DNA from: Dimargaris cristalligena
Taxonomy: Eukaryota
DNA: 59,150 nucleotides
Assembly (NCBI GenBank): GCA_003614675.1
Contig: ML002248.1
Coordinates: 1-59,150, forward strand
Direction: 5' to 3'
Shown: positions 19,387-40,300 of the stretch, in pieces
Layout: every line of letters starts with the position of its first letter
How positions within the stretch are numbered: the stretch's first letter is position 1
The notes under the pieces: generated by a model
What the model saw: only the letters and a program-made list of their open reading frames with translations
Database searches by the model: none
Told to the model about the DNA's origin: nothing
Made by a program: the position numbers and the translations under genes

Positions 19387-22300
19387 ATGGTTGCCTTTGC
19401 CTCTGCCCCGATTTCCCACTCCATGGGTTTCCTTTTGCCCGTCGTTCCTATGGAATATCAACCTGACATTGACCTACCCCTCGGCAAGCCCCGTACCAAC
19501 CCACCGGGCTACGCGGCCTGGTGCTATGGTGTATCTTTTCCCGATTTGGATCTGCTCCATCACGACCAGTTCAAACAAGGGTGCCAATTGGCGATGGCTA
19601 CTCTCCTAAGCCGTTACTATCGCCAGCCCGCGGTCGCCTTTGCCCACTGGCAAGGTCCCGTCGGGCCAAATATATTTGTTGACCAGTTTAATGGAGAACT
19701 TGACTTGGTCCTCGCCAGGATGAATCCCGATACCCCTGTTTCCGCTATTAGCCTGCAACACCTTGCGCCTGATTATCTCCCTACCTTGTCAGGCCCAGTG
19801 GTTGAGGTGGTCCTCCATAGCGACGCAGACGGCTCCAGCACGCTTACCCCCATGTCCGAAACCAATATCGGCTACAATCAACCCAAGGAGGTCGAAGCAA
19901 ACTCGCATATTACTGAACTATTGGCCCAAAGCACCGCTCACCTGGTAGTGAGTTGCGCACTTGGCCAAGGTCATTTTCAGATCACTGTAACCTATGCCCG
20001 GGCCTTGTACCGTGATTCAGCCGTGGCGGAATTTACAAGTCAGTTCGGAACGGTCCTTCAGGCAGTTGCCCAGGCCCTACTGGACGATCAACCCACCCTC
20101 GTGCGCGAAATTCCGTGGGTCAGTGACCGCGAACTAGCTCGCCTATCCGACTTCTCGCACTCAGGCCAGCCTACTCGCGCGATTGGCCGCCCGGTCCACC
20201 ATCTATTCGGCGACTGTGCCCAACTTTACCCCGACCATCTAGCCCTGGTTGATGGCTCGAATGAATGGACCTACGCTCAGCTGGACTATGCCAGTTCCGA
20301 ACTGGCCCGGGTTCTTGTGGCTCAATACAGTGCTTGCCCTGAAGTTCGCTTCGCCCTACTCATACCTAAATCAATTGCTTATATGGTGACCATTTTGGCG
20401 GTTTTGAAGTCCGGTGCTGCCTACGTGCCCCTTGATCCCGATTACCCCACCGACCGAATCCAATTCGTTTTAGAGGATAGTGATGCAAGCTTGTTACTTG
20501 TGGACGAGTCCAGTTTTGGTAGGGTAGCTAGCCAGTTTAATGTACCGACAATGACGGTGAATCCGTTTGTGCAACAACCCATATCTGGGGTACTCTCTGA
20601 TTTCCAACCGTTTCTCTCGGCTCCCAGCGATCTGGCCTACGTCATCTATACCTCAGGTACCACTGGCCGTCCCAAAGGAGTTTTGATTGAACATCGCGGT
20701 GTGGCAAATTTTGCCACTGATCCTTACTTACGCAGAGAATACGGTCCAGGCCGTCGGGTCTATCAGGCAGGATCCGTCGCCTTTGACGGCATTCTGGTGA
20801 ATACATTTCGCGCCCTCTGTGCTGGTGGTACGCTTGTTATCCCCACTGACAATATACTAGAAGACTTGCAGAATATACATGTGGGCACACTTACGACTAC
20901 CTTTCTATCTCGTCTGGACCCCAAGGGTTTCACTAATTTGGAAACCCTGGCAATCGGCGGGGAGTCCCTTCTACCTGACCAACAGGCTCGGTGGACACCC
21001 CACTGCATTTTGGCCAACCATTACGGTCCAACTGAAACGACAGTCTACAGCAACTTGGCCGCCATCGGGCGCGACGATGACATCACCATCGGCCGACCAA
21101 TTGGCAACGTCATCAATTTGGTGGTTGACGATGAACTTCAGTTAGTACCTGTCGGGGTTCCCGGTGAACTTCTCATTGGGGGGATCGGAGTGGCTCGGGG
21201 TTACCAGAACCTACCTGAGTTGACCGCCCAAAAGTTTATTCCCAATCCGTACGGGGAGGGCCGGGTGTACCGCACGGGGGATTATGTCCGATGGCTCTCA
21301 AACGGAACAGTGGAATTCCTCGGTCGTATCGATAACCAAATCAAACTACGTGGGTACCGGATTGAGATTGAGGAAATTGAGAATGTGGCGAGTCAATTCC
21401 CCGGACTAAAACAGTGTGTGGCGGCGGTGGTTGAGGACACTTTGGTGCTCTACGCCAGTCCTGAAGACCTCGAGCCAACCAGTCTATTGGACTATTTGAA
21501 GGATCGATTATCCAAGCAAATGGTACCTGAGCTGGTAGTACCCGTGCCCAATTTTAAAACCACCATATTGGGTAAACTGGATCGTAGGTCTCTGCCGTCC
21601 ATTGGTCACTTGCTGTCAAAGAACTCTTTTTTATCCCCTACTGGGTCGGATACCAATGGTCCTCAATCGGAAGCCGAGGAAGACCTTCGACGAGTGTGGG
21701 GCAAGGTTCTACAGCGTGACCCCGGCCGTATTGGTACCACTGACCATTTTTTCAAAGTCGGTGGCGACTCGATTTCGGCCATCCTTCTGGTATCCGAGTG
21801 TCGGCAATTGGGATATCAGCTGACCGTGTCTCTAATTTACCAGTATCCTGAGCTATTCCAGATGGCAGCACAAGTTCAACACCTCTCCTCCATCGACAAT
21901 ATCAACGGGGTACAGTTCAGTCTGTCCGAAATCGAGTTCCAGCAAGTTACGGAGGAGCTAGGTCACCGGGGGATTTCATCATCCGAAGTTGAGGTTCTAC
22001 TCCCTTGTATTGGGGTGCAGGGTGGTCTATTAGTTGGGCTAGGTGTAGATCCCTCTGCGTACACGGTTCAAATATCTTTGAAACTTAATGGCTCTCTGGA
22101 TTACCACCGGCTAACCCAGGCCTGGAACGCCGTCGCCAGCCAACATCCCCCCCTCCGAACTGTGTTTGTGGAATCATCCGCCAAACGGTCGCAAGGTTTT
22201 GTTCAGGCCGTGATTCGCTCGCCTTCGGATGTTTGGACCCTCGGCAATAAGCCCTTAGCCTGTCTTGATAGTTTTTTTACCAACAACTTGCGACGCGGTT

Positions 22301-25300
22301 TCGTTCTACAGGAGCTCATGATCCGTAATTTTGTATTTCCCACCGCTGATAGTCAGGTACATGATGTCGTTATTTCGGCCCACCATTCGCACCTAGACGG
22401 CTGGTCCATGTCGCTTCTTCTCCAGGCCTGGATGGCCGCCTACCACCACCCTGAGATATTGGCACCCTCACCACTAATTAGCTTCCCGACGGTTGTGGAG
22501 TACCTAAGTCAGATGGATAACACTCAAGCAGGTGAGTTTTGGTCAACCTACCTACGCAATGCCCATTCGACACCAGCGCCCATGCTCTTCCCGGGGTCCA
22601 GTGGAGCATCGGGTTCGGCGACCTACTACACCGTTATTGATATTCCCAAGACCCAAATGCAGCAATTTACTCAGAGTGTAGGGATTACGCTGGCCACCTT
22701 GTTTCGGGCTGCCTACGCTTTAGTCCTGAGTCGTTTACTCGATCAAGACGATGTCATATTCGGAGTGATTCTGTCTGGACGAAATTTAGACTTATTGGGT
22801 ATGGACCAGGTCATCGGTCTCTGTATCAACACACTGCCGTTCCGGGCATGCCTAGGCCAGTCGCCTCTCTACTCTTGGTTACAGTCGCTTCACCAAGCCC
22901 AATCGAACATGATCCAATTTGAGCACTCAACGTTGCCCGATGTTACCCGGTGGGCCTCCACTGGCCAATCTGGGCCACTCTTCCACACCCTTTTAGGATT
23001 TGAGAATTACAACGGCTATGCGGCTGAACCGTCACACCACATTACCCTATCCGATCTCCGGGTTCACGAGGCTACGGAGTACCCACTAACCGTCGATTTT
23101 CTTGTCCAATCCACAGATATCCAGGCCAAGGCTCTCTATAGTACATCGACCTACTCGGAGGAAGCTATCCGGCACTTGGTCGGAATGATCCAGACCGCTG
23201 TTGAGCAGATTATATTGGCGCAGCCTGGGACCACTGTGGACCAACTAACACTCATGACTTCGCCATCGAGTCACTCTATTGTATATGACCAAGAAGAATT
23301 CAGTGCTGCATCAGCCTTGCCTGCCCAATCGTTGGCCAAAACCTGGGATACGATCATACTGGAATACTCCGAACATCCGGTTTATATTTCGAAAGGACAC
23401 GTTCTGTTGTATGGTCAGCTGGACCATTTAGCCGATGGCCTTGCGTTGCAATCGGGCCAAATTCTCAAAGTGCCCCGCCCATCAATCATGGCTCTTGTGG
23501 AAAGCGTTGAACAGTACATGGTCTGTTTAGTGAGCGCGGTCAAGATGGGGGCCCGCCTCACACTTCTAGCACCCCCATGTACAATTGACCAATTGGTGGT
23601 GTGCGTCAACTTGACAGCGAGCCAGATAGCATGGCTACCGTCGGCCAAAGCCGAGGAAATTCGACCGTTCCTGAAAGGGGTTGTACCATTGATTACTGTG
23701 CCAAGTGCAATTGATGAGTCCATCAGCCGCACCCTTGCGCCTCGTGGATTCAAGCCCCTCATTGATCGACAGGACCCCAGCCTGACGTTCACTTCCAAAA
23801 AGAATTCGGATGACCTGGTTCTATCTACCATTAACGGTTCGTGTATCCGGTGCACCCTTGCCTCAACGCACCATTACACCTCCGATAAGGCTGGTATTAT
23901 TATCGACCACTCGTTATCCCTTGATACTCCCCAGGCTGCCTGGCTCATTCTCTCGAGCCTGACATCGCATGCGACGGTTCTATCACACACTTCCCCTCTT
24001 GACGAGCATACCAAATCATCCTCGTGCCATGTGATGACTGCTGATGCTCTACACAGTGATTTGGGTGAGAGTAATAGGTTGGTTCTTTGTGACCTGGCCC
24101 AAGCCCACCAGTCCGACTGCATTAGTCTAGTCAAATCCACCGACATCTGCATATCGTTTATTGAGTCCATCTTTCATGGATACCAACAAGTCACTAAGGA
24201 GCAATTGACGTCCCAGTCTTTCCCCACCGCAGACAAGCCATCCAATAATTATTGCCTGGACGTGCTGGACGGTCACGGTCATCCCTGCCCCCCAGGAGCT
24301 GTTGGTCGCTTAACCTTCACCAGTCCGGTGCCCCTTGACCATTCAGCCCCCCAAAAGTACCTGATCCTTGGCTATCGCGCCGACGACAACCGGATCCACA
24401 TGCTAGGCCCTGACTCCCAGAGAGTAGTTGTTAAAGGCCAGCATATACATCTTGGTATACTGACTCGAGCACTAACTGAGGCTGGTGCTCTTTCCCCACA
24501 GTGTATAGTGCTACCCGACGGTCGACCAGTTGCCCTAATAGCCAATACAGCCGAAGTGGACTTGACTCGGCTTAAAGAATTCGCAACCCCACCTGCCATC
24601 CCTCTTGCTCTAGTACCCCATGCCATCATTTCGATCTACGCCTTCCCCCACGTAGCCGGCCTTAGTGACCATCATCTGGCGTTCTTCGTACAGGCTTATC
24701 TCACCACCCTCACTCTTCGCCACTCTGAGTCATTGTTGGAAACAGAGTGGTGGCTCACTGTGGTAGTGAACGAGCTGTGTGCCTCCCCATCTCATTCAAA
24801 CGACTATACTACAACTAGCCTCCTTCGCACCTCATCGGAAGCCACACTGGTCCAGTTGGAAATGTTTCAATATCGCATTCGCATTAAATTCGGTATCAAC
24901 ATGCCCCTGGGTGACCTGGTCAAACACGCTGAACTACGAACACTGGCTTCTACTCTACTGGACCGCATAAACCGGCTCCCATCTGCATATTCCGGTGATT
25001 CGGGTGTCGAAGAGGTCAGCATCAGCGTACCAGTTTCCTCACAATTAAATTTGCGGAGTCAGGCGGTTACCGATCGTCAGCATCAAATATGGTCCCTTAG
25101 CCGGTTGGGGCACACCCCTTCAGATTTCTACCACCAGTGTGTGATAACTTCAGAGGTACCACTCCAGCTGGAGGTTGTCCAGCGGGCCGTCAACAACCTA
25201 TCCGCCACATTTGAATCGCTCCGTTGCCAGTTTATATCAGTCCGAGGTGCACTCACTTGTACTGTCTTACCCCAGGTGCGAACTGGAATCTCTGAGACCC

Positions 25301-28300
25301 AATTGTCGACATCTCAATCACTGTCTATGGACAAGCTGTTTTCGGATGAAGTTAAATTTAACCTGGATCGAGGGGTCCTTAGTCAGGTGAATCTGTATCA
25401 TTTTCCGACGACTACCGAAGGGGGCGCAGCATCGGCTATATGCCTTCGAATTCATGACATTGCCGCTGATTGGCAAATGTTCAGTAAAATGGTTAACCAC
25501 TTGACTATGGGACTATATGGAATTTCTCCGAATAATTCTGAGCCATTGGTAACTAAACTGAACCCCGGTTATCATGCTGTAAAGGGTACTGACACCAGTT
25601 ACTGGACGACACTTCTCAGCGATCCCCCTACCGAGCTTACTCTGCCTCTTGATCATGCCCGACCCCTACTGCCGAGTTTCCGATCTGCCACAGTTCACCT
25701 TACAATTGAACCTAAGTTGGTGTCTTCCCTGGCGAGCCTTAAATCTGCCGGTCCATTTGCCCAGGGCGATATTTGGCTGGCACTCTTCGCCGTCTTCCTA
25801 AGGCGATTGACGGGTCAGGACGATATCGTCATTGATTACTGCGGTTTGGAAGACCCACCCAATGGCCAAGTAGGGGGATCTACCGAACAACCCGCCACTA
25901 ATCTACCTGTTCGCTGTTCTGGAAACTGGCCAGCACACATCCCCCAACTTGCTGAGAACATCAATCTTCAGCGCCACCAATCCATGAGTCATCCGATTCC
26001 ATCGATCGATTTCTATTCTTCGTTTGTGGATCACCTCGGTCTTAACCGACTATCATCCAGCCTTGCTCGGGTTCGGATTTCTCTCCACCAGGGCTCTCAT
26101 GAAAAATCTGGCACTAATGGGTCCCAAATTACTTATCCAGACAACTCCCAGTCGTTGTTTCCGTATGATCTGGAACTGGTTATCCGAGAATCAACATTGG
26201 GGCATAGCTGCCATCTGCTTTTCAATCCGGATATACTGGAAAGTTCGACAGCCAAGCGTTTATTATCCAACTTTCTTCATTACGCTCAGGAATGTCTATG
26301 CTCCGAAATGTCATGGTCAGATGCTTCAACGGTTTCCACCAAAGAATCTCGCGTCTTGCTCCAGGAATTTGCCCTTGGGGGATTACACCCTGATCAAATG
26401 GCTGTAGAGTCGCCCGCTGGGGTTCTGTGCCAGTTTAACCGGATGGCAGCCCTGTATCCCAACTGCTCTGCCACTGAAATATCCGGTCAAGTGTGGACCT
26501 ACCTAGATCTCGTAGACCGTATTCATTTAGTGGCCGCTGGTTTGCGTGATGCCCAGATTCAGCCGGGTGACAAGATTGGAGTTATCGTTACCAACCACCC
26601 AAACACGGTGGCCGGGATGCTGGCGGCTTGGGTTGTGGGGGCCGTATACGTGCCCGTAGACCATAAGCTGCCGGTGAAACGCCAGAAGTATGTTATCGAG
26701 GCAGCTTGTTGTAAAGTTGTACTGAACGCCACTGATTCACCTAGCCAGTTGCCTAATACCTTAGTCCTGTCTGAGCTTCTAGAGGGTAATGGCGATTTTG
26801 GCAACAGGTCCAACATTTACAATAGTCGCCCTGATGACCTGGCCTACGTTATCTTCACTTCGGGATCCACGGGTCTGCCCAAGGGGGTGATGGTGACTCA
26901 TAGCAACCTCGATCACCAGGTTGGCAATCCCGTCTTCCAAGATTTCCAAGTAGCCGGTCAGCGTGTCATGGCGGGAACTGCCCCTGGGTTTGACGTGTTC
27001 ATTCTGAATTCCCTCCTTCCTTTGTGTAACGGCTCGACACTGGTGTTCTACGGGGACAATTTGGCCGAAACGCTGCGTCAGGTAGACCAAACTTGGTTAG
27101 TACCGTCGGTCATCAACCGGCTGAACCCCTCTGACTACCCCAATCTCAAAAAACTGTGCCTAGCGGGCGAGCCACTCAGCCGCGAGTTGGTTGACAAATG
27201 GTCGATCATTCCTGATATTTACAATGGCTATGGGCCCACTGAGACAACCATCATTAGCCATTTTACCCGCGTCCCGCCTACTGGCACAATCCCCATTGGC
27301 CCTCCAATTTTCAATTACGAGTGCTATATCCTGGACAGTCAACTGCAGCTGGTACCTATCGGGGCCATTGGCGAAATACTCATTGGCGGTGTCGGGGTCA
27401 GCTGTGGCTACATTAACCGATCCGATCTTAATCCTACCGCGTTTATTGAAAACACCTTCACTGGCCGGGGTAAACTCTACCGTACCGGTGACCTTGGTCG
27501 CTGGCTAACCAACGGCCAGGTTGAATGTCTGGGGCGTATGGACAGCCAGATCAAACTGCGCGGGTTCCGTATTGAGCTGGACGAAATCCGAAGTGTCTTG
27601 ATGCGTCAGCTCGGAGTCCAGAACTGTGTCGTCTTTGTCCATGGCCAGTTCTTGGTCGGCTATGTCTTCCCTGAATCCGCAGCCAATAGCAATGGACTTC
27701 ATATTGCCCTGGCCGATAGTTTGCCATCATATATGGTGCCCAGTTACTTCATGGGTTTACCGACAGTGCCCCTCACCGCTAACGGCAAGTGCGACACCAA
27801 ATTTCTGCAAAGCCATTTCACCGAATATTTGGCCTCCCAGCGTAAACAGGCACCATCGTCCAACCTAGCTTTGGACTTGTCAAGCCGGCCACTGGGGGCC
27901 TTAACCGAAGCACTGGCCGATGTACTTGGCCTAGCCCTTGCCCAGATTAATATACAATTATCATTTGTTAAACTCGGTGGTGACTCAATTTCGGCTATTC
28001 AAGTTTCGTCAAAGTGTCGTCAACTTGGGTTTACTCTACCTACCTCCATGATACTGGGGTCAAAATCACTGTGTGAATTAGTTGGCAGTATGGAGGTCAT
28101 TAGCCCTACAGTCGGTCAGACAGCTCTCCACCAGCCTATTCAATACCGCACTCCCTTCCCCTTTACCCCAGTCCAGCAGTGGTTTTTTGACCATCCCTGG
28201 CGCAACCCTCACCACTTCAACCAGTCGTTTGCCCTTGAATTGACCCAGACATTATCCGCTCCCCAGATTGAGTCAGCTCTTCTTCGCCTGATTAATCACC

Positions 28301-31300
28301 ACGACATACTGCGCTGTCAGTTCACTCAGGACGTTTCTCATTCTCCCAACCGGTGGTCCCAATGTATACTGCCGCCGTTTGCCAGCCTTCCCATTCCCGT
28401 GGTGGAAGTTACCGCCCCTTTGTCCGATTGCCCCGGTCATTTCCTATCAATCCAGTCATCTCTTGACATCTCCCAGGGCCACCACATGGCTGCGGGCCTT
28501 ATTACTCTCTCGGAGCATAATATCGACTCATCCTCCGATACGGTTTCTCACTTCGCGGTGTCATCCCAGGCATCCCCTCGGCAGTTGTTATACTTGACTA
28601 TCCACCATTTGGTAGTCGATTTGGTATCCTGGTCCATTTTATTAGAAGATTTGGCGCGACTTTTAGATGGACAGTTGCCCGTCCCGCAGCATCTCTCGTT
28701 TGTTACCTGGGCAACTGAGTTGGTCGACTGGGCCAAAGAAACTGCTCATGTCGCTGATTTATCACTTGCCCCAATGATATTGGCATCCTTTTTACCCCTC
28801 AGCAGTCCCGACGCCTTGGCATTCAATACCCAGCGTAATTCGCAATATTTGTCCATCACCTTGGATAAAATTAATTCGGATGCTCTGCTAGGGGCCTATG
28901 ATCTACCTATCCAGCCTTTGGAACTGATGTTTGCTGGCATATTTCAGGCCCTGTACTCTCTGACCCAAGCGTCAGCCCTTTGCGTTTTCAACGAATCCCA
29001 TGGCCGCCATTCCTGGGAATCCAGCCTTGATCCCAGCCATACCGTGGGCTGGTTTACCGCTCTAGTACCCTGCCAGGTTCAGGCTGACGCTGGCACATCG
29101 ACCTCAGATTTCCTTAAACTGGCCAAACAGGCCCTCCGTTCGTCGAATGGCACCAATGGATTGCAATATGGTCTCCAGAGAATAGTAAACTGTTCTAAGG
29201 TTGAAGCCTCTAATGACCGGCCCTATTTGCCGATTGAGGTCGTATTCAACTACCTAGGGCACACAATGGACTACGGCACACTGACCCAACAGGGTCGTGC
29301 CCCCTGGGCCCCTCGCCCCGAATTGACTGCCGGTTTGGCGGTTTGTGATGCCGATGAGCTCCGTACCCAGATATTGGAAATTATTGGTTATCCAACTTCC
29401 GAGGGTCTGGTATTCATGGTCCGATATTGTCCCCAGGTCATAGCAACAGGCATTATTGAGTCACTATTGGGCTGCTTCCGAGACTCCCTTGTCGGTATGG
29501 TGCAGGCCATCCAACAGTCCCCTAGTCCCCCACTTTGGACTCCAACGGACTTCCCTGACCTACAGGCCACTCTGCCAGAACTAACCAAACTTGAATCTGA
29601 GCTTGCCACCATTGGCCTTACTCCACACGATGTTGAAGATCTCTACCCCATGTTACCCATGCAGCAGGGCATGTGGACAGCCACGGCCAAGGATCCCTCT
29701 GAATACCTGGTCCAACTGGCCTTTACCGTTACTGGAGTATCAAACGTCGACCGACTTGAGGCGGCCACTCAGGCAGTTGTGAGTGACTACACCGTTTTGC
29801 GCACAATGTTTGTAACCACCTGGAGTAATTTCCATTGCCAAGGTGTCCAAGTAGTGACCCGAGAACCACGATTTGGTTGGCAGATCATTAATGAGTGGTC
29901 AGACGTAGATTCCATTTGTGAGGCTGATTTCATGCAGTCCAACAAAAGGCGCGGTTTCGGGCCCAACGAACCCCTTCTCCGAGTCCTTGTTAATCAGCTG
30001 TCGGCCAACGTAATCCGTTACTTATTATCCATCCACCATGCACTAATTGACGGGTGGTCCATCGGGATTCTGATTAGTCGGCTCCGGGCTCATCTTCAAA
30101 ACAATGCAGGAATCCAGCTGGTGCGACCCCCTGTATTCCGCGACTATGTAGCACATCTGCAAAAGTCTAGCAAAGAAGACGCGAAATTGTTTTGGTCGGA
30201 GTACCTACGAGGTATAGAGCAGCCAACGGATTTGGAACTCCCCAAGCCTGCTCGCAAATGTAATTCACCAATAGCTGAACTAAAAATGACACTCTTCCAG
30301 AATGTTTCCCCAATTACTCAGCTCGCTCACCGTATGGGGATCACTCCCTATGTCCTTGTAAAATCCGCCTGGGCTCTTCTCTTGAGCCGCTATACTGGTC
30401 AGCCTGATGTCATTTTCGGCAATACTGTGTCTGGTAGAGCACTGCCCCTTGCCGACATCGAGTCCCATCTAGGGTGTCTTATCAATACGGTTCCATTCCG
30501 GGTTCATGCTGACGAGTCCATGTCGGTGGCTCAATGGGTCACTGCTATACATGACAACTCCCAACAGGTTATTTCATTCGAGCACCACCATATATCGGAG
30601 ATCAACACATGGGTCGAAGGAGAAATTCGGCCAAGTGACCTGTTCAATACGCTCGTTGTGTACGAAAGCTACCCTGAAACGGAGATAAATGACCGAGATC
30701 ATTCAGTTATTTTTACTGATACCGAGTTTCTCGAATCTAGTGACTATCCCCTTACACTAGTAGTCCTGATGGAGAAGGGCCAACTTAACGCTTGCTTGAA
30801 ATGGAACTCGCAACAATTTGGCTCGACTTATATTGATGTCATGGCAAGACACTTGTTCACTCTATTCAATGGGCTGGTCTCCGCCTTATCCGACACCGAT
30901 GGCCAAGTCCGCGTACAGGATTTGCCCATGCTTTCGCCCAACGAGCGAGCCGTTGTAATCGAGAAATTTGCTAGTCGTCACCTCACCATCGACCCCGGTG
31001 CTTGTGTGCCAGACTTGTTTACTAGATCGGCTCAGATCAGACCAAATGTTATTGCCGTGGAGTACGAGGACACTAAATGGACCTATGCTTATTTACACAG
31101 CCAGGCGCTCAATCTAGCCCAGCGACTGCTAGTCCGAGGGGTCCCGCGTGAAACACCCATTGGCCTGCTTATTGACCGGATTCCCAGTACAATTGCGGCC
31201 TTTATGGGCTTACAGTTGTCAGGGGCAGTTTTGGTTCCCCTGGACCCTACTTTCCCCATTGAGCGTATCAGGTATATTGTGGAAGACTGCAACATTGGCC

Positions 31301-34300
31301 TAGTTCTTACCAACATGGCGGACCAGTCCAAACTGGACACCATTCACCTAGCCCTCACCCAAGTTGAAATCCAACCGATCGACCCGTTGCTTTTGCCCCT
31401 TCAACTAGCCCAGGACCAACTACCTATCCTCCCACACATTCACTCCTCTGACCTTTCCTATATAGTGTATACATCAGGAACTACGGGCCGGCCCAAGGGT
31501 GTCCAAATCGAACATTGCCTCATGGGCAACTTTGTCCAACAATTGGAATCGACAGTTGGTATTTCCGCTGGCCTGCGCTTGATGCAAAATATGGCGATGA
31601 CCTTTGACGGTGCCCTACTTGAGATATTTACCAGCCTATGCAAGGGGGCCACCCTTGTTCTTAGGACGGATCTGTTGGACACACTACCCAAGGTGAATGG
31701 TTTATTCGCCACCCCTACTGTACTGGCTTCTCTTGATCCGACCAAATATCCTAATCTACAAATGGTCATTTCCGGTGGAGAGGCCCTTCCTCAAGAAGTA
31801 GCCAAACGCTGGGCCCATCACTGTCGAGTGTTCAACATGTACGGGCCCACCGAGGTTCTGGCCTCACACACAGTCGAGTACAGACTCGGTGACGTCATGA
31901 CTATTGGTTACCCGGTACCTAATACCCAGGGCTATATCCTCGACCGCTTTTTGCACCCCGTTCCGATCGGGGTGCGTGGTGAAATCTACGTGGGTGGCGC
32001 ACAAGTCACACGGGGCTATGTCAACTTACCCGGCCTCAATGCCGCGAGATTAATCCCCAATCCTTTTAGTGGGTCGGGTAATATGTACCGGACAGGGGAC
32101 TCTGCTCGCTGGCTACCCAATGGTACGGTTGAGTACTTTTCACGGCATGACGACCAGGTGAAAATTCGTGGTCATCGAATTGAACCCCGGGAAATCGAGG
32201 CGGTCCTTCTCAGCCACCCGGATGTACAGAGTGCCGCTGTGGTCATTATTAGCCAAAGTATCTATGGCTTTGTCTGCCCTGCTTCCGTTTCCATTGGATC
32301 CATCAAATTGCACATTGGTCGGATTCTACCAGCCTATATGAACCCCAAAACCATATTTATTATTGAGATGCTACCCTGCAACACCAACGGCAAGACCGAT
32401 AAGCACGCCTTAGCTACCCGAATCGCCGAGTTAACCGTAATGACTACTGGACGTGCCATCACGGCCCCGCTTAATTCAGTCCAGGCCCTAGTTGTAGAGG
32501 CCCTCAGCCAGACCTTGGATATACCCAGTGTTGAGATTGACATTTACGACTCCTTTTTCCAGCACGGCGGTGACTCGATTTCGGCCATCCGCCTGTCCTC
32601 CCTTTGTCGAGACCGCGGTCTATACTTATCCATCGCCCAGGTATTCAAGTGTAGTAATATCATCGAGCTGGCCGAGTGTGCTTCTGATCACGCCATGTCT
32701 GACAATCTACCAGAAGCCCACAACTTTGCCCACTATGAGCCCTATAGCCTACTTGGAGAAGTGGGTGATCCTTCTTCGGTCGTGAAATATCTCCTGCACG
32801 AGGCATCCTCCCAGCTGAAGATGGATTTGGACAATATTACTGATATTCTACCGGCTTCTGGGCTTCAATTGGGCTTTCTCATCAGTACCCTGAAAGACCC
32901 GAGTGCGTATATGGTACAGGAATCTTTCACCATTTCCGGGGACTTAGACTTGGATCGCCTCCAGCAAGCCTGGTACCTGTTGGCTGAGCACCATGATATC
33001 TTGCGAACAAAATTCTTCCGACCTGAATCTCTATCAAGTCACTCCTTCCTCCAGGTCATCACTAAGCGGTGCGACATTGAATGGTCAGTCCATACAGATA
33101 TAGTCGACGACTGGTCCACACTGGAGAAGACTTATTTTGAAATTGACCGTCGTCGTGGGTTTACTTTCGACGGACCACTATTACGGATGGGCTTCTTCAC
33201 CTCACCGGCCACTGGCGATCTCCGGCACTTGTGTTTCTTGACCTTCCACCATGCCCTACTCGATGCCTGGTCTCAGAATATTGTGTTGACCCAACTGGTT
33301 GACCTATACCACGGTACTAAGCCTACCCCCTCTACCCAGTTTAGTAGTTACATTTCCCACCTCCAAAGCACCAACCCATCACAGCTCCAAAAGTTCTGGC
33401 AAACGACACTAGAGAATGCCCAATCCACCCCACCTATACATTTTCCTGTTCACCTCCCCGAACCCCTGGATTGCAATTATGGAATATATCGAACCACACT
33501 GTCGTTAAATCTGTCTAGCCTGCACGCATTCTGTCGCCAGCAAAGCATTACCCTCAATTCCCTCCTGCGTAGTGTCTGGGCTCTTACCCTGTCCCGCTAC
33601 CTTGGCTTGTCCAGTGAAGTATCCTTCGGGGTTCTTACTTCCGGTCGCAATGTTCCTGTACCAGGTGTCCAGGAAATGGTGGGCATGTGTATTAATACTA
33701 TCCCGTTCCGAGCGTCACTTGACCAATCGACCTCTGTTACCAATTTTGTCCAGCGTTTGCATCGCCAATCCGGTGAACTGACGGCATCTGAGCAGTGTGG
33801 TCTTGTAGATATATACAAATGGGGCCAAATCAACTCCGAAACCAAGCTCTTCAACTCCCTGATGATTTATGATAACTTCCCGCCCTCCGCACCCAGCACC
33901 TCTAACCCCGATATCACCCTCGAGCTTAGTGATGTACAAAATTTTACCGAATACGCCTACACCGTCAGTTTTTTTGATAACAGCGATAATCTGGACTGTC
34001 ACTTGGTTTACGATATGACCCACTGTGACGATACCTATGCTTGCCATTTGATTCGGTTTATCGACCATTGCTTGTCAATGATGGTACATGCCCCGTGTCT
34101 AAGTCTGGGTGAGCTCATGATCCTTCCAATTGATGAGGCCCAGCTCGTACACGGCTGGGCCCAAGGGCCTGTGCGTGAATTCCCCCAGAAACAATGGCTG
34201 GCCTATCGGCTGTTCAGTCAGCATGTCTCCTCCAGATCCGAAGCCGTCGCCCTTGAGACCTCAAATCACCGATTTACCTATGCCGAGGTTTACCATCGGT

Positions 34301-37300
34301 CGTGTTGTATTGCCCTGACCCTCCAGCAACGCGGATTCAGCCCCGGTAACCTTGCCGCCCTGATCTTTACCAAGTCAGCTGATTTTATATTCAGCTATCT
34401 GGGAGTCCTTTTGGCCGGTGGCGTGTGTATCCCAATGGATGCAGGCAATGCCCTTGACCGCCTACAATACATGTTTGGGTTGTTAGACAGCCCGTGGCTT
34501 ATGACCACTGTTAGCCATTATAAAAACTGCAGCGATCACATTTCGGTGATGGACAGTCAGTGCTGCTTTGTCGATACCATGGACTACAGTAAGATTGTTG
34601 TCGATTTGTTCCGGCCGGATACCTCTCGCACGTCCTCGGACTTGGCCTACATTGTGTTCACGTCAGGGACCACCGGCCGGCCCAAGGGAATTCCCGTGCG
34701 GCATGAGTCACTCGTCAACTTTACCGTATCAAATTGCGAAACCATCCAGCTTGACACTGAGTGCCGTTTCCTACAATTGCTGAATATTTCATTTGACGGG
34801 TGCCTCCTCGAAATCTTTGGTGCATTCCATTGTGGAGGTACGCTAGTACTCCAGGATGGGAATCTTCTCGACACCCTAACTCGGGTTGACACCTGCTTCC
34901 TCATTCCATCAATGCTGTCAGCCATTGATATCGAGACGTATCCCAATCTAAAAACAGTATTCATTGGTGGCGAACCTGTTCCACTTAATATCGCCTACCA
35001 GTGGTGTGAACGTGTCCGCTTATTCAATATTTACGGACCAACGGAAATCACAATCGTGTGTCACACTGACCAAGTATATAGCAGTGAGCCGCTCTCCATC
35101 GGCCGTTCACTAGCCAATACCCAAGGGTATGTCCTTGATGACCAGCTCCAACCCGTGCCTGTAGGTGTCCCCGGAGAACTTTGCATTGGTGGGGTTGGGG
35201 TCAGTTCAGGCTATTGGAAGCAACCTGAACTCGCTGCCAAATCCTTTGTTCCTAATCCATTCGGACCAGGTTGCCTGTATCGTTCTGGGGATATGGTTTG
35301 TTGGCTTTCCAGTGGCAAGATTCAGTTCATTTCGCGTAAAGACTTCCAAGTCAAACTGCGCGGTTATCGTATCGAACTGGGCGAAATCGAAAACGTCGCC
35401 TCGTCAGTGGATGGAGTTACCAATGCGATAGCCTGCGTATCCCAACAGCAACTCATTCTCTATATAGCCCCCGGGTCGGTTGACACAGGGGCCCTCAGGA
35501 CTCAGCTTACCGTCAAACTCCCGCAGTACATGGTGCCTAATTTCATCATTCCACTGGATTCCATTCCCATGACCACTGTAGGTAAGGCTGATCGCAAGAC
35601 TCTACAGGCACGGGCATTACCAGAAGATACCACTGATGAAGCCATTGATATTGACTCGTTGTCTTCGATTTTTCAACTTATGCGAGCGGCCTTGGTCGAC
35701 ACCCTCAAGATTGATCCTCAACGGGCCACTCCATCAGCCTCGTTCCTCCGACTTGGTGGGGACTCTATTTCAGCCATTCAGTTTTCCAACCGCTGTAAGC
35801 GACTGGGCCTCCGACTTTCAGTAGCCGATATTCTTAAATACCCCCAGTTATCCGTTATGGAACAGCGCGCCCATATGGTTGACACCAATAATCTACCGAG
35901 TGCCCAGTTTATAGATCCCGCCGGGCCGATTCCGTTTACTGCCGTGCAGCGATACGCCTTGAAGCAATATCGGTTTATCAACCAATTCAACCAGTCCATG
36001 CTTCTCAAGTGCCGCCAGACCCTAACTCGCACCACTCTTGCCCAGACTCTGACTACGTTGATGGCTCATCACGATATTCTTCGGGTCCAACTTGAGCATT
36101 CCAATGGACAGTGGCAGCAACGGGTGATATCTATACCCGCCGGCTCATCTACTTGGTCAAACAGGTTCTTATCCATTGAGGAAGCCACGCTCACCCTCGA
36201 TGAATACCCTGCCTGGGTGAGTCAAATACAGCGGAATATTTCCATTGAGCACGGGCCGATAATGGCCTGCGGCCTATTAATGTTGGATGGTGAGCAGCAT
36301 ATTTACCTGACTATTCACCATTTTGCGGTCGATTTTGTCTCCTGGCGGATTATTCTCGAAGACTTGGAAGCCCTGTTGACAAACCAGGATTTGCCCGCCA
36401 AGACTATGCCGTTCCGAGACTGGGCCACCCAGGTCCATACTTTTGCGCAGACTCTGTCCGAATCAATCTGGCCAGTGGAATTCACACCAGCTGACTCCAT
36501 CCCCCTGGACTATCCATTTTCATCTGCGAGTGACCTAGGTACCCCTCTCGCAATAACCTACCATTCGTTCGAAGTCCAACAAGCATCACTTGGCCTCGAT
36601 TTGTCCGACACTCTATATACCGAGGTTTCCCCTACCGTAGGGGCTTCACCTCAAGAATTTCTGATAGCTTCTCTTCTTCTCTCTCTACAAAAAACCTTTG
36701 GACTTTCCGTAATCGAGTTAGAACTGGAAGGCCATGGTCGTCGGACCTGGGACTCTGCCATCGACATCAGCCGTACGGTAGGCTGGTTTACCTCCATCTA
36801 CCCAGCTTTATTCCACCTGAACCAGGCGGAAACCCATCATGCTTTTGGACACACCTTGGGTTCCTTGGCCCTAGTCAAACAGCGCATGCGTTCGATTCCC
36901 GACCATGGCTTCCCGTATAGTCTCCAGCGCTACCTCAAGGGCACCTCCCCTTTGTCGGCTCCGGCTATCAATAGGGCGGCACCAGAAGCGGGCATGGTAC
37001 CTTCAGATGACTGGAACCGTATAACGTTCAACTACTCAGGACGGTTCGAACAGCTGGAGGCCCAGAATGCATTCTGGCGCCCCCACCACATCGAAATGGG
37101 TTGGACCGACGATTGGAGCAAGGACGAGGTTTTCAGTCGCGCACTTAGCGTGGCCTGTGACTATACGGTTGGTGAAGGCCTCGTACTTAGTGTAATGTAT
37201 TCTAACAAACTTCACCATAACATAACAATCCAGCGATTGGTCGATCAGTGGCGTACCTCTCTCGAAGAGCTCATTCTCGAATGCAAGGTTGTTCCTGCAC

Positions 37301-40300
37301 CATCCATTGTGACAGCTAGCGATTTTTCTTCGGCTCAACTTACTGAATCGGATTTTGCCAAGATGGTTCAGGATGACTTACCCTTATTGGACTTGATATT
37401 GGCCGATATTGAGGACATCTACCCCTGCCTACCAGTTCAAGAAGGTCTACTGTTTGCCACCCTCCAGGACCCGGCCGCTTACATGGTCCAGCTAGGGTTC
37501 AATATCAGTGGCCAGCTTAATGTCGGTCGCTTTTATCAGGCGTGGAACCAAACTGCGCGAGATCACCCAATCCTTCGTACGCGCTTCTTAACCGCCAGTG
37601 GGTGTGATGCCAGTAAGAACCTCCAGGTTGTGGCTAGGGATTTTAATGCCCATTGGCTTATTCGAAGCTGGGAGAAGGACTGCGCTGATACTATGCGAGA
37701 CCAATTCTTCCTTCAAGAGCGGACTACTGGATTCAACCCCGACCAGCCTTGGATCCGGTTTGGTCTTTTCCGGACGGCCCCTAATTCATTTAAACTATTG
37801 GTTTCGGTGCACCACGCCCTGATCGATGGCTGGTCCGTCGGGTTGCTACTCCATAGTGTCTGCTGTAACTACTTCGAGGACCCTTTGCCTAAGGCAGTAC
37901 ATTACCGTGATTTCGTTGACTATATTGGGAACCAAGATAATGCCGTGGCCAAGCGGTTCTGGTCCGATAAATTTTCTGGAGTTGGAGAGCCAAGTTTATT
38001 AGTACAAGCGAATCATCATCCCGCCTTCCCAGCCCTGCGACCCAGTGACACTGCATTTTATGGAACCGTCGAAAGGTCGGTACCGATTTTGGAGAAGATT
38101 AATAAGCTGATTAGTACCAATGGAGTTACCCTTTCGACCCTTTTACGAGTAGCAATGGCGGCGACTCTTCACCGCCACACCGGATCTACTGACCCAGTAT
38201 TTGGTGTGGTGGTCTCGGGCCGGAATGTCCCTGTGGAAGGTGTCGAGAACATCATTGGGGCGTGTATCAATACCATTCCCTGCCGAGTGGCCCTGGGTAA
38301 CAATCCGTCAGTCCGGGATATTCTACAGGCCGTGTACGCGACGAGCACCCAGACCCACGGTTTCGAACACTGTCGGCTTACGGATATCCATCGCTGGAGT
38401 GGCCTTAGTCAAGATCGTCCGTTATTCAACACCCTCCTGGTACTGGAGAACTACCCGGAAACTTCAGCGAATCCGAATCTTCCGTTTCAATTGGAACTTG
38501 ACAGTTACTGGGATCCCACGGACTTCCCACTTGCTGTCATTGTCCATACCCAAGGAGATCAGCTCCAATTTCGAGTAACCTACCGGACATTGGATTTTAG
38601 CCCCGAGTTCATTCACTTATTTGCTGACCATTTCATTACCACATTATCGTGTCTACTGTCTGCCGACGCCAGTAGCCCACTTTCAGATATTCAGATTCTA
38701 AGTCCACTCGAACGCGAACAACTGCTGGTAAGCTGGGCTACCAATCCTCAGGATTTCCCCCCAGTCTTGGCTCATGATCTCTTCAGCCAACAGTGTCAGA
38801 GTGAACCACACGCCGTGGCTCTCATCCATAACGGCCAAAAATACACCTACACGCAACTGGATATGGCTGCTAATCGACTAGCCCACTCACTGGTCCTATT
38901 GATACCCTGTGGTTCCGACCGTATAGTGGCTTTAGTTGCCGACAACTGCCCGGAACTCATTATAGGGCAACTGGCCATTTGGAAGACGGGCTGTGCATTT
39001 GTTATTTTGGCGCCTGACTATCCCCTCGAGCGACATCAATTAATCTTGAAAGACACCCAAGCGATCGCCATTATGGGCAAACCCTCCTGTCTCTCCGCTA
39101 TAGACGACCTCGGACTAAATGTACCTATGATACCGATAAACAGTGATTCCCTTTTTACAGATGGGACAACGAACGTATATCTATCGCCGGCCATTGACCC
39201 CTCCCATTTGGCGGCTATCATCTACACATCGGGCTCGACTGGTATCCCCAAGGGTGTCATGCATGAACACCACGCACTAGCCAACCACTGGCAGGGTATG
39301 GGTAGTATTACTAACATGACACTCGGTGCCATCACTCCAACCCTCGTTACCCCCACCTTTGATGTGTCCCTATCCGAGATATGGTCCACATTGTCCTTTG
39401 GCGGTACCCTTCTAGTAAGCCAAGGGGATTACGAAAGTGCCCTTTCTCAGGCCACTCGAGCCTGCTGCACTCCTTCCCTACTGTCCAGCTTTGAACCGGC
39501 CAATTTCCCCAACTTACGCCAAGTTACTATTACGGGTGAGCCAGCCAACCAAGGAATAGTAAATAGATGGGCCGACTCGGTTGACCTCATCAACTGGTAC
39601 GGCCCTACCGAAGTGGCCTGCGGATCCCACTGGTTCCGACTCCAGGCCAACAAGAAAATAATCCCCATCGGTGCTCCACTGCCCAATGCCACTGGCATTA
39701 TCCTAGACACCTACCTGCGTCCGGTCCCTGTCGGTGCTGTCGGCCAGCTCTACTTAGGCGGCCGTGGTGTGGCCCGTGGCTACCTCAACCGCCCCGAACT
39801 TACCCAGGAGAAATTTATTTTGAGTCCATTCACTAGTGAGCGCATTTACCAGTCGGGTGATTTGGCCCGCTGGCTACCCAATGGCCAGATTGAATGTCTC
39901 GGCCGGATTGATAATCAAGTCAAATTGCGGGGGTTCCGGATTGAACTAGGCGAGATTGAGAGCGCCCTGGAACATCACGCCGCCGTGGCCCAAGCCTGTG
40001 TTGTTATCCAGGACGACACCCACTTGGTCGGCTACATCGTTCCCCCTTCTGGCCAATCAACCGCTATTCTGGACTCTTTAAGATCCCGGCTACCCTACTA
40101 CATGGTGCCCTCTGTCCTGGTGGAACTTGCCGAATTACCACTGACCCGGGTGGGTAAAGTGGATCGTAGGACCCTGCCCAAACATGACTTTGCGGCCATT
40201 AGTAACAGCCACAAGGCCGCCCAAGTCAGTCCAGCCGAAGCCCAACTCATTGGCCTAGTCGCTGAAACCCTTCGGATTGATCCGAGTGTTATTTCACCAG

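Follow-up and report, generated by a model that had tools for sequence, protein, structure and literature searches.

A degenerate module in the reading frame of an NRPS gene

In this work, we focus on a stretch of 59,150 nucleotides of contig ML002248.1 of Dimargaris cristalligena, a mycoparasitic zoopagomycete, and we refer to this whole stretch as the window. It carries a gene for a nonribosomal peptide synthetase (NRPS), which is encoded in a single uninterrupted open reading frame (ORF) on the forward strand (19387..41787, + strand, 7466 aa, no stop). According to Pfam and motif scans, the order of the domains is an N-terminal region, A1-T1-C1, dA-dT-C2*, A2-T2-E, C3-A3-T3, C4-A4-T4-E, C5-A5-T5 and a terminal C-like domain, in which A, T and C stand for adenylation, carrier and condensation domains. 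The subject of this text is the second of these units, dA-dT-C2* (aa ~1296-2330, nt 23272-26376), which is collinear with a complete A-T-C module and is devoid of any catalytic signature. The first-pass annotation of the window, made from the letters alone, had placed this dead module at 23330-26310, boundaries that we revise to nt ~23272-26376.

The degenerate unit, like the other parts of the gene listed in this paragraph, lies on the + strand and is made of three parts: dA, a full-length degenerate adenylation-like domain (23272..24756, aa ~1296-1790); dT, a carrier-like region with its linker, delimited by alignment (24757..25038, aa ~1791-1884); and C2*, a full-length condensation-fold domain, delimited by Pfam, alignment and hhalign (25039..26376, aa ~1885-2330). 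Upstream of it comes the active module 1, with A1 and T1 (20194..21906; A1 at aa ~270-760, the GGDS of T1 at aa 792-795; Pfam, motif scan and alignment), followed by the intact condensation domain C1 (22024..23271), whose HHSHLDG motif is found at aa 999-1005, that is nt 22381-22401 (Pfam, motifs and alignment). Downstream comes the next active module, with A2 and T2 (26419..28116; P-loop at aa 2491, GGDS of T2 at aa 2864), T2 being the presumed acceptor of C1.

The continuity of the frame over these 3 kb, which the first-pass annotation had claimed, is upheld by the ORF itself and by public DNA data: contigs of four public DNA runs from two studies, two of which may be the source of the assembly itself, span 22900-26600 with no insertion, no deletion, no joint and two single-base differences. 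Both differences fall inside the pseudo-module, 23492 C>T in run X2 and 24679 G>T in run X5, and as 23492 is a second codon position, the first one would change a residue. The stretch of aa 1296-2330 is also 100% identical, over its full coverage, to a public D. cristalligena gene model.

Loss of the catalytic signatures

The cores of adenylation domains that matter here are A3 (the P-loop), A5 (YGPTE), A7 (Y(R/K)TGD), A8 (GRxDxQVK) and the A10 lysine. A motif scan of the 7466-aa protein found the P-loop, YGPTE, Y[RKQ][ST]GD, [GS]RxDxQ[VI]K, GKxD and GG[DN]S exactly five times each, and not once within aa 1296-2330. When aligned with MAFFT to the five active A-T didomains of the same protein, aa 1296-1900 are collinear with them along their whole length, and all the cores are replaced. 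In dA, the P-loop is replaced by SDDLVLSTINGSCIRCT, YGPTE by FHGYQQ (aa 1596), the A7 and A8 cores (YRTGD...GRxDxQVKxRGxRIE) by YRADD...LGPDSQRVVVKGQHIHLG (aa 1661-1690), and GKxDR by GLSDHH (aa 1758), so that the A10 lysine is lost. No adenylation is to be expected from dA, which has lost its ATP-binding P-loop as well as A5, A7, A8 and the A10 lysine.

The two other domains are affected in the same manner. In dT, TSSEA (aa 1815-1819) stands in place of GGDS, and Ala1819 occupies the column aligned to the phosphopantetheine serine (A, V or I in the Dimargaris paralogues), in an alignment that is uncertain by ~3 residues at this place and needs a 4-residue insertion there. The GG(D/H)S context is absent from dT in all the sequences aligned. 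In C2*, HDIAADW (aa 2023-2029, nt 25453-25473) replaces HHxxxDG, with the loss of the second histidine, and the Asp and Gly of the motif as well as the C5 core are likewise eroded.

Most of this had been anticipated. The first-pass annotation described an A-shaped region with eroded cores after an intact C domain, the absence of YGPTE, a ghost of the A7/A8 cores, a T-shaped region lacking GGxS (for which we find no Pfam carrier match either) and the HDIAADW of the C domain at nt 25453, and each of these descriptions agrees with the alignments, the last one to the nucleotide. It also took LTFTSKKNSDDL for the remnant of the P-loop: the core is indeed lost, but this segment (aa 1466-1477) sits ~10 residues upstream of the true counterpart. 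Intact alternative catalytic motifs and disruptions of the frame were among the observations that it named as speaking against a dead and maintained module; none of the former was found, and none of the latter was seen where the DNA could be checked.

Homology with active domains

How far each of the three domains has drifted can be read from its family scores. The match of dA to the Pfam AMP-binding family (PF00501) reaches 16.2 bits for a cut-off of 29.9 (E 0.0048), below the threshold and over the N-terminal 100 residues only, and dT matches no Pfam family, PF00550 included, at E<=10. C2* is well above the cut-off of the Condensation family (PF00668; 70 bits for 30.6) and covers positions 6-455 of the 456 of the profile. 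An NCBIfam scan of dA, dT and C2* gave insignificant matches only.

Comparisons between families are more telling. With hhalign, the dA-dT family aligns to active A-T didomains over 498 columns (E 1.3e-5, probability 81%) and the C2* family to active C domains over 395 columns (E 3.2e-5). The 30 nearest ESM Atlas clusters to dA, retrieved through language-model features, are all AMP-binding (30/30). Against PDB profiles, the dA-dT family gives weak matches, all of them to A domains or enzymes of the AMP-binding ANL family (best E 0.0062), and the solved chains nearest to C2* belong to ordinary C domains, the X-domain chain 4tx2 being matched as well, more weakly. AlphaFold2 returned a mean pLDDT of 37.7 and a pTM of 0.22 for dA-dT, and of 38.1 and 0.40 for C2*, values too low for the models to be of use, from input alignments that contained whole multi-module proteins and in which the NRPS's own active domains were largely misaligned. 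At the level of sequence, these comparisons confirm that dA-dT and C2* resemble A-T and C by homology and not by chance.

Relatives and age of the dead module

The first-pass annotation proposed to look for the same pseudo-module in paralogues and orthologues, and it is found in paralogues and in two other genera. Five more gene models of D. cristalligena, drawn from two assemblies, were retrieved with the dead stretch by word-indexed searches (at least six others overall). In an exhaustive phmmer search of 1.84 billion representatives, the dA-dT query matched 21 proteins at E<=1e-3, 8 at <=1e-10 and 5 at <=1e-30, and an ordinary A-T didomain would be expected to match vastly more proteins than 21. 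The ten best matches all belong to the order Dimargaritales: they come from D. cristalligena (P0101, P0103, P0104, P0105 and P0106), Tieghemiomyces parasiticus (P0107, P0108, P0110 and P0111) and Dispira parvispora (P0109). The matches from P0112 on are short and limited to the A8-to-T region; among these, the name was looked up for P0112 alone, and it is a bacterial NRPS.

Nine proteins were scanned, and in each of them the matched stretch is preceded by an intact C domain, is followed by the next intact A domain, and holds no match to the P-loop, YGPTE, A7 or A8. A nine-sequence alignment shows that the whole dA-dT-C2* unit is collinear across the three genera. The first histidine of C2* (H2023) is invariant in all the sequences aligned from the three genera, and the position of the second one reads D, D, E, D, Q, Q, Q, P, E and E in the ten sequences aligned (10/10). 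C1 keeps HHxxxDG in the NRPS under study and in its paralogues, which read HHSLCDGWS. From the shared dead state it follows that the pseudo-module was dead already in the common ancestor of the three genera, and before the expansion of the NRPS family.

This expansion is documented: passages of PMC6784888 describe 27 NRPS genes with modular synteny, and passages of PMC9866270 report high NRPS counts throughout the Dimargaritales. The dead module goes unmentioned in the passages of both papers, and our literature search returned no description of it; the supplementary NRPS phylogeny and module synteny of PMC6784888, which lay outside that search, may bear on it.

The family also loses domains. 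Most relatives carry an E domain between T1 and C1 (P0003, P0004, P0005, P0101, P0104, P0106, P0107 and P0109), whereas the NRPS under study, P0103 and P0111 pass straight from T1 to C1 (junction at ~21900-22020, aa ~840-880). To judge from the sequences, the missing E is a clean in-frame loss of an entire domain. As domain-sized in-frame losses do happen in this family, the persistence of the pseudo-module deserves attention.

Two further observations concern the history of these genes. The identity between P0001 and P0003 is a mosaic, with 86% in A3, 57% in the adjacent C3 and 73% in A1 (A3/C3 at ~29600-32470), which suggests recombination or gene conversion among paralogous NRPS genes. Outside the Dimargaritales, the best matches to the NRPS stretch are bacterial NRPSs (for example of Dyella, Rhizobium and myxobacteria) with ~22-26% identity, and not dikaryan enzymes; the other fungal matches, among those listed, are two Mortierella alpina proteins only.

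Constraint on the degenerate domains

Within Dimargaris, pairwise identity is 44-72% for dA, 56-87% for A1 and 54-83% for C1. Against P0003 and P0004, dA is 58% and 48% identical with no gap over 495 aa, and against three Dimargaris paralogues (49-60% identity) there are 0-1 indel events over 473 aa; between genera, dA accumulates 10-15 indel events. The conservation is graded along the unit: the median window identity is 50-67% in the bodies of dA and dT and 37-60% in that of C2*, and falls to 28-34% in the C1-dA and dT-C2* linkers, so that the pseudo-module's own linkers are conserved about half as well as its domain bodies. Among the 969 columns compared across the three genera, 57 are invariant, mostly Leu, Gly, Pro, Trp and Cys, and they include CPPG (aa 1634-1637) and the C-fold motifs YW..LL..P..L.LP and P.R. 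The unit is still detectable by BLAST between genera (E 3.6e-28 for dA, 9e-37 for C2*). This pattern of conservation fits selection for the fold rather than for catalysis. As far as sequences alone can tell, what is relevant to constraint is that in-frame indels are scarce and that bodies and linkers differ in identity.

A module that is probably skipped

We favour, with moderate confidence, the reading in which aa ~1296-2330 is a translated and dead A-T-C pseudo-module, the relic of a sixth module, which the assembly line skips and whose fold remains under relaxed purifying selection. The loss of the motifs, the collinearity, the retention across genes and genera and the graded conservation are direct observations. 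From these, we infer both the skipping through C1 and a structural role of the pseudo-module.

The canonical route from T1 to T2 looks impossible, since dA would have to load dT, and C2* would have to condense. The most likely outcome is that the assembly line skips the pseudo-module, given that A1, T1, C1, A2 and T2 are intact and that dT and C2* are degenerate. The sixth module would have been inactivated before the NRPS family expanded in the Dimargaritales, C1 would take its donor from T1 and its acceptor from the aminoacyl group on T2, and the product would be a five-residue peptide made by six module-sized units. A route through C1 is favoured over skipping through the downstream C domain because every relative keeps the active site of C1 and none keeps that of C2*. 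Structures solved for NRPS modules show the C domain joined to the A core in a stable platform. It is probably as packing partners, dA for C1 and C2* for A2, that the bodies of dA, dT and C2* would have been kept, and they may also serve as a spacer; an exact removal of the dead parts would leave a non-native C1-A2 junction.

Several observations weigh against this reading. The dA-dT-C2* unit evolves ~1.5-2 times faster than the active domains: with respect to the closest paralogue, P0103, dA and C2* are 54% and 57% identical, for 75%, 78% and 68% in A1, C1 and A2, and between genera dA falls to 25% and C2* to 22-26%, for 47-48% in A1 and 36-40% in C1. The gene models of P0106 (Dimargaris) and P0111 (Tieghemiomyces) are without the first ~350-380 residues of dA, and that of P0104 is without parts of the unit. 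Genuine deletions could explain these gaps, but so could decayed sequence that gene callers spliced out, or mistakes of annotation; should the deletions be genuine, the shortened models of P0106 and P0111 imply that the dA core is dispensable in some members of the family. The absence of stops and frameshifts proves nothing by itself, because the downstream modules need the frame. Finally, Ser1816, Ser1817 and Thr1820 of dT are no more than 3 residues away from the position aligned to the serine, and in two Tieghemiomyces sequences that very column holds a Ser. The interpretation of the first-pass annotation is thus borne out in part: the module is dead, its frame is kept and it is retained in relatives, but the strict need for a scaffold is weakened by P0106 and P0111.

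Alternative explanations

A stronger claim can be made from the same observations, to which we give tentative credit only: the dead A-T-C unit would be a selected, folded adaptor of ~1000 residues, belonging to an NRPS family that spans the Dimargaritales, and it would either let C1 reach the carrier after next or act as a docking platform.

The opposite would be a pure relic, skipped and without any role, which persists because exact in-frame excision is rare and because stops and frameshifts kill the downstream modules. The faster evolution of the unit, the partial losses in the gene models of P0104, P0106 and P0111 and the 10-15 indel events of dA between genera all speak for it. Yet a sequence free of any role would hardly be expected to keep domain bodies about twice as conserved as the adjoining linkers, nor to diverge to 49-60% identity within Dimargaris with 0-1 indels over 473 aa, and the collinearity between genera, with dA and C2* still within the reach of BLAST at the E values given above, as well as the fold-determining type of the invariant residues, point the same way. 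We regard a pure relic as unlikely.

The pseudo-module could also have been neofunctionalised, either with C2* or the whole unit docking a trans-acting enzyme or partner, or with C2* still condensing by means of its first histidine and an acidic or polar residue. H2023 is invariant across the three genera, the residue that follows it is D or E in the six Dimargaris sequences aligned (6/6), C2* retains a full-length C fold (70 bits), and the X-domain chain 4tx2 figures among its PDB matches, though behind ordinary C domains. Against this, the second position of the motif varies between genera (D, E, Q, P), its Asp and Gly and the C5 core are eroded, the dead dT upstream leaves C2* with no canonical donor, and the 10 neighbouring ORFs scanned hold no tailoring gene. 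Taken together, these points make neofunctionalisation quite improbable.

Another possibility is that module 1 is disconnected from the rest, A1-T1-C1 working alone (for instance with a soluble acceptor), the main peptide starting from A2 and the pseudo-module being an inert tether. Such an arrangement would suit the lack of a canonical T1 to T2 route and the fact that the gene under study has lost the E domain found after T1 in most relatives. However, few domains of the family are as well conserved as A1 (56-87% identity) and the two parts are fused in every full-length relative examined, and we give this arrangement little weight, even less than the preceding one.

That the 3-kb segment is an intron spliced out of the mRNA is highly improbable: it consists of ~1035 open codons collinear with A-T-C, it is conserved at the protein level without changes of frame in paralogues and other genera, and the public gene model retains it with 100% identity and coverage.

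Other features of the gene and its neighbourhood

The N-terminal region (19387-20190, aa 1-269), which precedes A1, is 41-52% identical to its counterparts in the paralogues. A comparison of the N-terminal 275 aa with C domains by hhalign gave a resemblance to the C-terminal lobe that is not significant (probability 6%, E 0.006); these ~270 residues may be what is left of a C domain once present at the N terminus.

The public gene model has 7319 aa and differs from the continuous ORF in one respect only, that two in-frame segments are treated as introns. The first one (27922-28176) encodes 85 aa with the T2 core, GGDS included; it has GT...AG ends and is also present in the paralogue P0003. 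The second one (35128-35313) encodes 62 aa with the A6-A7 cores of A4. Since both encode conserved core motifs, and since the first is also found in P0003, these two introns are probably false.

The neighbouring ORFs belong to housekeeping families (P-type ATPase, SLC35F transporter, kinase, M20 peptidase, helicase), and no tailoring gene, P450 included, is evident among the 10 that were scanned.

Significance and relation to known systems

The order that harbours these enzymes consists of NRPS-rich mycoparasites that are chemically unexplored. Because dA falls below the Pfam threshold, genome mining based on A domains misses it and therefore misjudges the spacing of the modules; the prediction of product size for such NRPSs should use five residues rather than six. 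This NRPS family offers a natural test of the reach of C domains to their acceptor carrier and of module parts that serve structure only, both of which are questions in NRPS engineering. If the unit were truly a selected adaptor, long-range module skipping would have been fixed as a design feature and not as an accident, and it would provide a natural template to insert or bypass modules in engineered assembly lines.

Degenerate A domains are known in working fungal siderophore NRPSs, namely SidD/Nps6 and Sib1 of S. pombe, where passages of PMC8162485 and PMC2644324 call them vestiges with a structural role. As in Dimargaris, an A-like domain without its cores is kept in frame inside a fungal NRPS, and in SidD/Nps6 the N-terminal shortening of this domain, as described in PMC8162485, recalls the forms seen in P0106 and P0111. 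In the siderophore enzymes, however, according to the same passages, T and C remain active, another A domain loading T in an iterative fashion. The pseudo-module of Dimargaris departs from the siderophore type here, as it cannot be reused iteratively, because dT and C2* are degenerate besides dA.

Module skipping was reportedly described by Wenzel et al. in 2006 for the myxochromide S synthetase, where it is said to work through the downstream C domain. It has also been proposed for PlmJ, whose T1 keeps its serine, in the biosynthesis of penilumamide (passages of PMC10549243). The likeness, as far as these sources describe it, is that an entire module adds no residue, or would add none in Dimargaris; the difference is that most domains of those modules keep their motifs and that the skipping belongs to one enzyme, whereas in the Dimargaritales the erosion extends to all three domains and has become fixed throughout a gene family of three genera.

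Dead members of the C superfamily are described in passages of PMC10510592. The X-domain of glycopeptide NRPSs (Tcp12, PDB 4TX2) is catalytically inactive and recruits oxygenases; like C2*, it is a domain of C fold retained with a mutated HHxxxDG, and its purpose is non-catalytic. It is found after the last carrier and before the TE, where it recruits P450s, whereas C2* has a dead carrier before it and the next A domain after it. C2* being internal, and no P450 being found in the 10 neighbouring ORFs scanned, it does not qualify as an X-domain of the glycopeptide type. LgrA, in the same passages, ends in an inactive E-like domain, which is again a dead C-superfamily domain held in frame, but a single and terminal one, while the unit of Dimargaris is internal and comprises three domains.

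Degenerate single domains and occasional skipped modules were therefore already known. What is less usual here is a complete internal module in which all three active sites are erased, and which is nevertheless kept at full length across many paralogues and three genera.

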